Of a stretch of 64,000 nt of DNA, positions 7,243-9,386 are shown in pieces. This stretch comes from Escherichia phage Pu-Krd-SF3. Within the stretch, counting starts at the first letter, position 1. Every line of letters begins with the position of its first letter. The position numbers and the translations under genes were made by a program. The notes under the pieces were generated by a model. That model saw nothing but the letters and a program-made list of their open reading frames with translations. It had not been told where the DNA came from and made no database searches. The DNA lies in sequence record PQ249397, one strand, 5' to 3'.

Positions 7243-7731
7243 ATGAATATATTTGAAATGTTACGTATAGATGAAGGTCTTAGACTTAAAATCTATAAAG
7301 ACACAGAAGGCTATTACACTATTGGCATCGGTCATTTGCTTACTAAAAGTCCATCACTTAATGTTGCTAAATCTGAATTAGACAAAGCTATTGGGCGTAA
7401 TTGCAATGGTGTAATTACAAAAGATGAGGCTGAAAAACTCTTTAATCAGGATGTTGATGCTGCTGTTCGCGGAATTCTGAGAAATGCTAAATTAAAACCA
7501 GTTTATGATTCTCTTGATGCTGTTCGCCGCTGTGCATTGATTAACATGGTCTTCCAAATGGGAGAAACCGGCGTAGCAGGATTTACTAATTCTTTACGCA
7601 TGCTTCAACAAAAGCGCTGGGATGAAGCAGCAGTAAATCTAGCCCAATCTAAATGGTATCGTCAGACACCTAATCGCGCGAAACGCGTAATCTCAACATT
7701 TAAAACAGGAACTTGGAAAGCGTATATATGA
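7243..7731 (+). CDS. e: T4-type lysozyme (endolysin, gene e)
   Basis: [40 protein letters not shown]… is essentially the T4 lysozyme sequence; catalytic E11/D20/T26 positions conserved. Confidence 0.97.
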
Positions 7732-8009
7732 AAACATATAGTGAATTTTTATCAGAATCTATTCTTAACGAAGCTACTGACACATTTGCAACTAAGCTAG
7801 GTGCAGCTTTGGTTGAAGCCGAAAGTCTATTAGCACGTATTTCTGAACTTGCTAGTAAGATAGATACTCGCAAATTTGAGCGCACCAGTGATATCGTTAA
7901 GCTTGAAGCCTTGTTGCGTATGTGCGATAAACCGGAAGAAATCGCTAAGAACGGCTCGCTGATGAAACAACGTCTTGAAAAATATATTTCAGGCGCTTCA
8001 GAAAAATAG
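7728..8009 (+). CDS. internal-protein-like protein with capsid-targeting-like N-terminus ([11 protein letters not shown]…)
   Basis: ATG at 7728 overlaps the e stop (ATGA); MKTY-EF-L-E N-terminus. Confidence 0.7.
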
Positions 8010-8011
8010 TT

Positions 8012-8041
8012 GTTTACTTCCTCCAAGGGTTTTGATACTAT
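8012..8041 (+). promoter_or_regulatory. T4-type early promoter (GTTTAC … gaTACTAT)
   Basis: tGTTTACttcctccaagggttttgaTACTATAca upstream of denV. Confidence 0.55.
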
Positions 8042-8068
8042 ACATTCATCGACTACTTGGAGGAAATT

Positions 8069-8482
8069 ATGACCCGTATCAATTTAACACTTGTTTCTGA
8101 ATTGACCGACCAACATCTTATGGCTGAGTATCGTGAATTACCACGCGTATTTGGTGCAGTCCGTAAACATGTTCAAAACGGTAAACGTGTAAAGGATTTT
8201 AAAATCTCTCCAACATTTATCTTAGGCACAGGACACGTAACATTCTTTTACGACAAACTCGAATTTTTACGTTTACGTCAAATTGAGCTAATCGCTGAAT
8301 GCTTGAAACGTGGTTTCAAAATCAAGGACACGACTGTCCAGGATATTTCCGACATCCCTGTCGAATTTCGTAATAATTATGTCCCGTCCGAAGCGTCCAT
8401 TGCGATAAGTCAAGCTCGCTTAGATGAAAAAATTGCTCAACACCCTACTTGGTACAAATACTATGGTAAATCAATTTACTAA
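8069..8482 (+). CDS. denV: endonuclease V, pyrimidine-dimer DNA glycosylase
   Basis: [12 protein letters not shown]…[20 protein letters not shown]… closely matches T4 EndoV; ATG 8069 after ggagg. Confidence 0.95.
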
Positions 8483-8488
8483 GGAAAA

Positions 8489-8749
8489 ATGAAAATGTAT
8501 CAAGAATTTATCGTTGAAGCAGATGCCAAAGGTTCTAAATTTAAAGTTAAAGCTTTCATTGGTGATGCGGAAGACTTTGACTCATTAAAACGTAATGGGT
8601 ATTCTTTCTTAGGTGGCGATGGTAAAGAAATCAACACCTATGCAAAACGTAGTGAAATTGCTTATGTTGTAGCAAGTCCTAAAGTAGATGTTGACGATAT
8701 TGGATATGATTTTAACAACTTCGGAATTATTTCTGGCGGTAAAGCTTAA
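8489..8749 (+). CDS. ipII: internal protein II-like (N-terminus MKMYQEFIVEA)
   Basis: Capsid-targeting-like N-terminus; small basic/acidic body typical of T4 internal proteins. Confidence 0.7.
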   Translation: MKMYQEFIVEADAKGSKFKVKAFIGDAEDFDSLKRNGYSFLGGDGKEINTYAKRSEIAYVVASPKVDVDDIGYDFNNFGIISGGKA

Positions 8750-8752
8750 ACG

Positions 8753-8781
8753 GTTTACGCTTAAGTATTAATATGGTATAA
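8753..8781 (+). promoter_or_regulatory. T4-type early promoter (GTTTAC … tgGTATAAT)
   Basis: cgGTTTACgcttaagtattaatatgGTATAATtac upstream of the 8811 ORF. Confidence 0.55.
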
Positions 8782-8810
8782 TTACTCTATCAAAACAAAC
8801 AAGGAAACAC

Positions 8811-9386
8811 ATGAAAACCTATCAAGAATTTATTGCCGAAGCTTCTGTGGAAAAGGCCAAAGGCATTAACAAAGATGAGTGGACTTACCGAGGAAACGGC
8901 TTTGACCCTAAAACAGCTCCTATTGAACGGTACTTAGCTACAAAGGCTTCCGACTTTAAAGGCTTCGCTTGGGAAGGACTTCGCTGGCGTACCGATATAA
9001 ATATTGAAGTTGATGGGCTTAAATTTGGCCATATTCAAGATGTTGTTGCTAGTAACTTGGATGCAGCTTTTGTTAAAGCTGACGGTGACCTTCGTCGCTG
9101 GAATTTAAAACTATTCTCTAAACAGAAAGGCCCGGTGTTTGTGCCTAAAGCTGGTAAATGGGTTATTGATAATAAATTAGCTAAGGCTGTCAACTACGCT
9201 GGTCTTGAATTCGCCAAGCACAAATCATCATGGAAAGGTCTTGATGCAATGGCTTTCCGTAAAGAATTTGCCGATGTTATGGCTAAAGGCGGCTTTAAGG
9301 CAGAACTAGATACCTCTAAAGGTACGTTTAAAGACGCTAATGTTCAGTACGCTTACGCCGTTGCTAATGCAGCCCGTGGTAATTAA
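8811..9386 (+). CDS. ipIII: internal protein III-like (N-terminus MKTYQEFIAEA)
   Basis: Exact canonical capsid targeting sequence MKTYQEFIAEA; size (191 aa) matches T4 IPIII. Confidence 0.85.
   Translation: MKTYQEFIAEASVEKAKGINKDEWTYRGNGFDPKTAPIERYLATKASDFKGFAWEGLRWRTDINIEVDGLKFGHIQDVVASNLDAAFVKADGDLRRWNLKLFSKQKGPVFVPKAGKWVIDNKLAKAVNYAGLEFAKHKSSWKGLDAMAFRKEFADVMAKGGFKAELDTSKGTFKDANVQYAYAVANAARGN

Follow-up and report, generated by a model that had tools for sequence, protein, structure and literature searches.

The e-to-vs.8 internal-protein locus of Escherichia phage Pu-Krd-SF3 has a gene order that differs from that of phage T4 and recurs in many phage genomes

The internal protein (IP) genes of T-even phages encode small proteins that begin with a capsid-targeting sequence (CTS) of 10-19 residues. 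The CTS steers the protein into the scaffolding core of the prohead, the gp21 prohead protease cuts after an (L/I)xE site and leaves the mature protein in the head, and the mature internal protein is injected together with the phage DNA. Residues 4 and 7 of the CTS are reportedly key for targeting, and Y4, F7, (L/I)8 and E10 are reported to be important for targeting and gp21 processing of IPIII (PMC9026906). The IPs have been described as highly diverse defence proteins in which the CTS is the sole common part (Rao and Black 2010, PMC3012670). T4 Ip1, Ip2 and Ip3 were shown to be inhibitors of GmrSD type IV restriction enzymes, with a separate enzyme as the target of each, and the IP locus has been termed a hotspot of injected anti-defence proteins (Silas et al. 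2025, PMC12373910); infection of ECOR17 requires IPIII (Srikant et al. 2022, PMC9391042). Arbiol et al. 2010 (PMC2839356) put the number of known IP variants at more than 30 and name promoter/stem-loop elements as a possible cause of plasticity at both IP loci. In a passage that cites Repoila et al. 1994, they also describe these two loci as highly variable and as having elements that resemble PeSLs (promoter-early stem-loop mobile regulatory cassettes).

We analysed a stretch of 64,000 nucleotides (hereafter the window) from Escherichia phage Pu-Krd-SF3 (PQ249397); coordinates are positions in the window, and all features described lie on the + strand. The segment 6700-10200 is 100% identical to Escherichia phage Pu-Krd-SF4 (PQ759884.1), where position x of the window corresponds approximately to record position x + 96000. 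The window comes from a T-even phage, and this segment contains its e-to-vs.8 IP locus, one of the two known hypervariable ones. The gene order is nudE (6751-7206), e (7243-7731; T4-type lysozyme, 162 aa), a 93-aa ORF designated ip93 (7728-8009), denV (8069-8482; pyrimidine-dimer DNA glycosylase of 137 aa, RB69-type allele, Pfam PF03013 (Pyr_excise), PHROG 1183), an 86-aa ORF designated ip86 (8489-8749), an ipIII orthologue (8811-9386; 191 aa, PHROG 5341) and a vs.8 homologue (9564-10106; PHROG 1488), which is conserved and bounds the locus on the right. The stop codon of e and the start codon of ip93 overlap by 4 nt (ATGA), and the ip86 start lies 6 nt downstream of the denV stop. No match was returned by an Rfam scan of 7000-10200 at E <= 1, and Pfam contained no family for ip93, ip86 or the window IPIII.

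In several respects the locus resembles its T4 counterpart. The T4 IPs (Mullaney and Black 1996; Silas et al. 2025) and those of the window share an MKTYQEFIAE-like CTS, an (L/I)xE site and an e-to-vs.8 location, and the genes are alike in being small and non-essential. As to the two locations by which IP genes are recognised (e to vs.8, or 57B to trna.4), ip93, ip86 and ipIII all lie in the first. The preliminary description of this DNA had placed three ORFs with CTS-like N-termini around denV, at 7728, 8489 and 8811, and both the coordinates and the N-termini were exact. It had also given the T4 order correctly: the T4 record (AF158101) gives e-ipIII-ipII-denV-vs.8, and therefore the order in the window truly differs from that of T4. 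Unlike T4, the window lacks IPII and has two other IP types in its place, and denV lies among the IP genes in the window but after them in T4.

The N-termini of the three proteins carry the aromatic residue at position 4 (Tyr/Phe) and the Phe at position 7 that are expected of a CTS, beginning with MKTYSEF in ip93, MKMYQEF in ip86 (MKMYQEFIVEA in full) and MKTYQEF in IPIII (MKTYQEFIAEA), and Y4, F7, (L/I)8 and E10 are retained in all of them. At the level of motifs, gp21 (L/I)xE sites are predicted at LSE10|S in ip93, IVE10|A in ip86 and IAE10|A in IPIII; ip93 has a second candidate protease site, LNE15|A, which corresponds in position to ITE15|S of T2 Ip5. A six-frame translation of the window contains five instances of the pattern MK.[YF].EF, each at the start of a + strand ORF, whereas 100 shuffles yielded 0.02 on average and never more than 1. 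At the DNA level, the CTS is encoded by a 32-nt direct repeat (family D1) with copies on the + strand at 7728-7759, 8489-8520 and 8811-8842 that are 66-84% identical to one another. Another CTS-bearing ORF, of 188 aa, sits elsewhere in the window.

The 7728 protein, ip93, belongs to the Ip5 family of internal head proteins. With the CTS removed, it is 48.6% identical to T2 Ip5 over 72 aa (E 3e-17), it matches PHROG 3499 'internal head protein' (E 1e-46), and in phages VR20 and VR25 its homologue bears the annotation 'ip5'. The Ip5 proteins of T2, RB51 and wV7 are 47-51% identical to ip93 over ~84 residues, belong to the same PHROG and have the motifs KLG.A..EA, RI.ELA and EIAKNGS in common with it. 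They differ from ip93 in length (84 aa vs 93 aa), in their propeptides and in their location, since these Ip5 genes lie in the ipI locus (57B to trna.4) and ip93 is instead joined to the end of e. The match of ip93 to T4 IPII in BLASTP was confined to the first 11 residues, plus a weak 11-residue match (E 0.027), and removal of the first 12 residues left no BLASTP match to T4 IPI, IPII or IPIII at E <= 0.01. An assignment of ip93 as an IPII orthologue was rejected on the absence of similarity beyond the CTS, and the suggestion in the preliminary description that this protein does not look like IPII or IPIII holds, as does its distinctness from all three T4 proteins in the alignments that had been proposed as a check. 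The family is very small: an exhaustive HMMER search across 1.84 billion representative proteins yielded 4 clusters, and a word-indexed homologue search returned only 5 and 12 clusters, every one of them from T4-like phages. An AlphaFold model of ip93 is a three-helix bundle (pLDDT 80), for which Foldseek gave nothing in the PDB at E <= 0.001 and a sole match in BFVD, another phage 'internal head protein'; a sequence search of the PDB gave chance-level matches alone. Neither structure nor sequence thus offered a hint of a target.

ip86 is assigned to PHROG 2667 'internal head protein' and PHROG 35655, and at least 80% of it is covered in 215 phage records, which include Gaprivervirus and Gelderlandvirus phages. 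BLASTP of ip86 against T4 IPII gave no match beyond the first 11 residues and none with the CTS removed, and it was ruled out as an IPII orthologue for want of similarity beyond the CTS. AlphaFold from the single sequence gave an unusable model (pLDDT 50). In contrast to these two proteins, the 8811 protein is a full-length orthologue of T4 IPIII, with 177/192 identical residues (92%, E 3e-133). Its pI of 9.6 is that of a small basic protein and falls within the 9.0-9.7 of T4 IPI*, IPII and IPIII, whereas mature ip93 (pI 6.3-8.1) and mature ip86 (pI 5.2) are not basic. Basicity is typical of the T4 IP trio rather than a strict definition of an IP. Packaging through the CTS, cleavage by gp21, injection and inhibition of a GmrSD enzyme are established for IPIII in T4 and would extend by homology to the window IPIII, which probably shares the target of T4 IPIII since the two are 92% identical.

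How does an order so unlike that of T4 come about? The preliminary description attributed it to cassette-like reshuffling in this phage, and a recent rearrangement private to Pu-Krd-SF3, that is, a new reshuffle from a T4-like ancestor, would agree with the fact that the order does differ from that of the reference phage. The frequency of the gene junctions refutes this reading. Junction-spanning queries were compared with 50,697 phage records and matches were counted at a coverage of at least 80%: the window-type e/ip93/denV junction was found in 222 records and the denV/ip86/ipIII junction in 151, including RB69 and many Tequatrovirus isolates, whereas the T4-type junctions e/ipIII and denV/vs.8 were rarer (35 and 25 records, respectively). 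Moreover, VR7, which belongs to another genus, also has denV ahead of its IP genes. We consider a private rearrangement very improbable on these grounds. Even less credible is that the arrangement is an artefact of assembly or annotation; minor annotation differences alone, such as the start codon of ip86, speak for it, and it was rejected because the same sequence recurs, contiguous, in independent genomes from many laboratories. From the junction counts it follows that T4 has the minority arrangement, and these counts and the order in VR7 suggest that T4 represents the derived or minority state at this locus.

Comparison with individual genomes leads to a similar picture. At least part of 6700-10200 is matched by 921 phage records, and 73 hold at least 80% of it in one place; the nearest relatives align with the entire 3.5 kb in a single piece at 95-97% identity and in the same order. 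The preliminary description had named two findings that together would refute it, an ordinary IPII orthologue at 7728 and a gene order matching that of the nearest sequenced relative. The second was found and the first was not, and a synteny comparison, in which the nearest relatives and RB69 have the same e-ORF-denV-ORF block, does not support the implied peculiarity of Pu-Krd-SF3. Among nine phages examined there were eight different e-to-vs.8 orders. T4 has ipIII-ipII-denV and the window ip93-denV-ip86-ipIII, to which HMD-9 adds a 132-aa CTS gene between ip86 and ipIII, and W143 an Ip10-like gene in that position and ipII after ipIII. denV is deleted between ip93 and ip86 in both G8 (followed by ipIII) and G4498 (followed by ipIII and ipIV), and T2 has ipIV alone, without denV. 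The order is ORF127c-denV-ORF125c-ORF124c-ORF123c in RB69 and denV-ip10-ORF127c-ip7 in VR7.

The comparison with RB69, a Mosigvirus, indicates that part of the locus is shared between genera. Identity to the window is 55-80% over nudE and most of e, and it is 94-100% in 100-nt windows from ~7600 to 8840, denV included, where the alignment ends inside the ipIII CTS. This profile therefore identifies a ~1.2-kb block, comprising the 3' end of e, ip93, denV and ip86, that is near-unchanged in two genera. In comparison, the T4-homologous part at 8000-8478 (the spacer and denV) has 77% DNA identity to T4. The mature part of ip93 is 100% identical to RB69 ORF127c and that of ip86 is 93% identical to ORF125c. 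Gene order and overlaps in the ORF127c-denV-ORF125c block are as in the window; RB69 then goes on to ORF124c (Ip10-like) and ORF123c where the window has ipIII. The RB69 record (AY303349), which we take to date to 2003, already contains the e-ORF-denV-ORF block. ORF127c has a compensated frameshift over CTS codons 5-12, with the mature part still fully identical to that of ip93, and either RB69 can do without this CTS or its old sequence contains errors.

Relatives of the window differ from it through whole-gene insertions and deletions, whose edges could be mapped in several cases. The homology of HMD-9 and W143 with the window breaks off after 8839 or 8840, which is 29-30 nt inside the ipIII CTS, and picks up again at, or slightly upstream of, the ipIII start (8811); the extra genes are therefore bounded by direct copies of a repeat that comprises the ribosome-binding site and the CTS. 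Homology with T4 ipIII extends from 10 nt before the ATG to 17 nt past the stop (9403), at a hairpin at 9389-9406, and T4 homology restarts at 9426 with the sequence that follows denV in T4. The hairpin, AGGCC-N8-GGCCT followed by ATTTAC, is weakly terminator-like (z -2.4) and forms the 3' edge of the ipIII cassette. G8 and G4498 have lost denV through removal of 310 nt lying between direct repeats of 13 nt. At the left side of the locus, homology with T4 e stops at 7726, and the 3' codons of e are unlike those of T4 (KAYI* here vs DAYKNL* in T4). The left edge of ip93 thus lies inside the last codons of e and corresponds to neither a promoter/stem-loop element nor the CTS repeat, and therefore one mechanism does not suit every junction.

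Two exact matches to TATAAATA, the T4 late-promoter motif, lie upstream of e at 7209-7216 and 7222-7229. ip93 has no promoter of its own, and the pair at 7209-7229 would drive e together with ip93, which may be expressed through translational coupling to e; ip86 may likewise be expressed with denV. TATAAATA was not found in front of each ip gene, and the idea that every cassette has its own late promoter was dropped since the motif is limited to the region just upstream of e and one copy inside ipIII. The spacer between ip93 and denV contains a promoter/stem-loop element at 8012-8065, which begins with GTTTAC (from 8012) and combines TTTACT (8013-8018), 17 nt and TACTAT (8036-8041) with stem arms at 8018-8031 and 8051-8065, the 3' arm of which contains the denV Shine-Dalgarno sequence GGAGG (8059-8063). 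Its fold of -21.1 kcal/mol (z -4.0) was equalled in stability by 0 of 200 shuffles, and it fits the T4/PST promoter/stem-loop consensus TTTACW-N17-TAYWAT (PMC4122927). The T4 ipII-denV spacer has the same architecture with a different stem sequence. The spacer upstream of ipIII has an early-type promoter at 8754-8782 (TTTACG-N17-TATAAT, with TG before the second hexamer), the top promoter-like match of the region (10/12), and its fold (8750-8810) includes no significant stem-loop (z +0.3).

The 8012-8065 element resembles a PeSL (Arbiol et al. 2010; Comeau et al. 2014) in that an early promoter overlaps a stem-loop in a spacer of a hyperplastic region. In contrast to the PeSL case, a significant stem-loop is present in only one of three spacers here, and the mapped breakpoints are mostly in the CTS-coding repeat and the hairpin 3' of ipIII, not in the stem-loop. 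According to Arbiol et al. 2010 (PMC2839356), the T-even IP-associated elements are analogues, not homologues, of the PeSLs of RB49. The differences in order from T4 would stem from insertion, deletion and replacement of cassettes. We propose recombination between the repeats that encode the ribosome-binding site and CTS as the cassette joint; recombination may also occur between early-promoter/stem-loop elements in the spacers, and entire blocks would also pass between phage genera. It is very likely, in our estimation, that this is a hypervariable T-even IP locus of injected CTS proteins whose order is altered by gain, loss and replacement of cassettes at repeats and by transfer of blocks between genera. 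The cassette-like evolution suggested by the preliminary description is right in this sense, and what falls is its treatment as a peculiarity of one phage. Nor is it new, because the variability of the locus has been in print since 1994 and the arrangement of the window is in hundreds of database records.

What ip93 and ip86 do is a further question. By analogy with the T4 IPs, we infer that both may be packaged, injected and inhibit a host defence. A different possibility is that they are not packaged, and that the 5' end encoding the CTS serves mainly as a recombination linker or translation-initiation region for proteins that act as cytoplasmic accessories during infection. The neutral to acidic mature proteins (pI 5.2-8.1), as against the basic T4 IPs, are in keeping with this view, as are the other reading frame of CTS codons 5-12 in RB69 ORF127c upstream of a 100% identical mature part and the deposited annotation, which places the ip86 start at the second ATG. 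In addition, IPIII without its CTS is still functional when expressed in the host (Srikant et al. 2022, PMC9391042). Nevertheless, Y4, F7, (L/I)8 and E10 stay in register in both proteins despite the 66-84% DNA identity of the repeat, the genes sit in a locus otherwise full of proven or annotated IPs, and the group that established the family calls Ip5 and its relatives internal proteins in its annotations. We consider it unlikely that ip93 and ip86 are left out of the head. Our preferred reading, that they are injected, can be taken further in a tentative proposal to which we give somewhat less than an even chance: ip93 and ip86 may be inhibitors of host defence enzymes that have yet to be matched to them, most plausibly further GmrSD variants, with a non-basic charge that hints at packaging or binding different from that of T4 Ip1-3, and the ~1.2-kb e'-ip93-denV-ip86 block may have been exchanged between Mosigvirus and Tequatrovirus via the CTS-coding repeat.

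Internal proteins are first-response countermeasures of the phage to host restriction, and the set that a phage carries contributes to its host range. ip93, ip86 and the 188-aa CTS-bearing ORF are widespread and uncharacterised, and are candidates for screens against GmrSD targets like those carried out for Ip1-3. The practical value of these observations is modest; their main outcome is a corrected expectation, namely that T4 does not typify its own genus at this locus.

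The e-to-vs.8 region of the phage shows signs of traffic between genera. Window positions 7600-8840, which take in ip93 (a 93-aa ORF of the Ip5 family, 7728-8009), denV (8069-8482) and ip86 (an 86-aa gene, 8489-8749), are 94-100% identical to positions of about 2000-3242 in the corresponding locus of the Mosigvirus RB69 (L010), versus 55-80% for the flanking genes. The right-hand end of this block lies within a repeat that codes for the capsid-targeting sequence (CTS), the N-terminal signal of the internal proteins (IPs). As judged from these identities, there is evidence of a recent exchange of the block between the genera of RB69 and the window phage. 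Within the block, RB69 ORF127c and ip93 share an identical mature part of 81 residues but differ by two frameshifts, -1 followed by +1, inside CTS codons 4-12 (L010 2129-2175 versus window 7728-7775), such that RB69 ORF127c reads MKTYMNFYQNLSLNE across the region and ip93 reads differently there. This difference may be either a true loss of the canonical CTS in RB69 or the product of errors in an old sequence.

Annotation also bears on how the CTS of ip86 is read. In PQ759884 (Escherichia phage Pu-Krd-SF4), the gene begins at the second ATG (window 8495), giving MYQEF at the N-terminus. With the first ATG (8489) as start, Y4, F7, I8 and E10 fall back into CTS register, and the equivalent ATG is the annotated start in RB69 and W143. 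The start codon in PQ759884 is probably misannotated.

Phages G8 and G4498 lack denV through an identical 310-nt deletion bordered by 13-nt direct repeats, AATTATG(A/T)CCCGT, found in the window at 8065-8077 and 8375-8387, and in T2 the gene is missing altogether. Thus, denV is itself dispensable and variable within the locus.

A stretch of about 130 nt immediately 5' of vs.8 is highly conserved (window 9426-9563, plus strand; T4 locus L002 4938-4815, minus strand), and its cores CCAACCTGTAATAAGGTCGAGC and GCGGTAA-GGGT are nearly invariant, RB69 and VR7 included. Whereas in T4 the stretch is annotated as an N-terminal extension of vs.8, the same frame in the window meets a stop (ORF 9452-9553), which makes it probable that the conserved DNA serves as a non-coding leader or regulatory element and that vs.8 starts at 9564. 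Rfam returned no match for 9426-9563, and since the predicted base pairs are invariant, covariation argues neither for nor against a structure.

Genes with CTS or CTS-like N-termini also occur outside this locus. A 54-aa ORF (53913-54077, plus strand) has the CTS-like N-terminus MKTYKEFIKE/D with an IxE site (slash, putative gp21 cut). The primase gene lies directly 3' of it, a position we take to be that of T4 gene 61.1. In contrast to the IP genes, this ORF is widely conserved, with matches in 1397 phage records that include T4 and phages of Klebsiella, Acinetobacter and Aeromonas. Away from both classical IP loci, between the tRNA cluster and e.8, a 188-aa ORF (2978-3544, plus strand) begins with the canonical CTS MKTYAEFLTE/A, and its mature part is basic (pI 9.5). 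Its family is PHROG 2280 ('unknown function'), and 164 phage records carry it, RB14ncORF136c included; all matches listed are annotated as hypothetical. The ORF is a candidate for an internal protein missed by annotation, one encoded at a third locus. The classical ipI locus of PQ759884 (95272-95913; L004 7273-7914), directly left of window position 1, has no T4-type ipI and instead holds two other IP genes, encoding a 90-aa protein of PHROG 7673 and a 102-aa protein whose mature part is 100% identical to T2 Ip7. With these two further genes included, the count of CTS-bearing proteins in the phage, made by CTS motif, comes to at least six apart from gp61.1.
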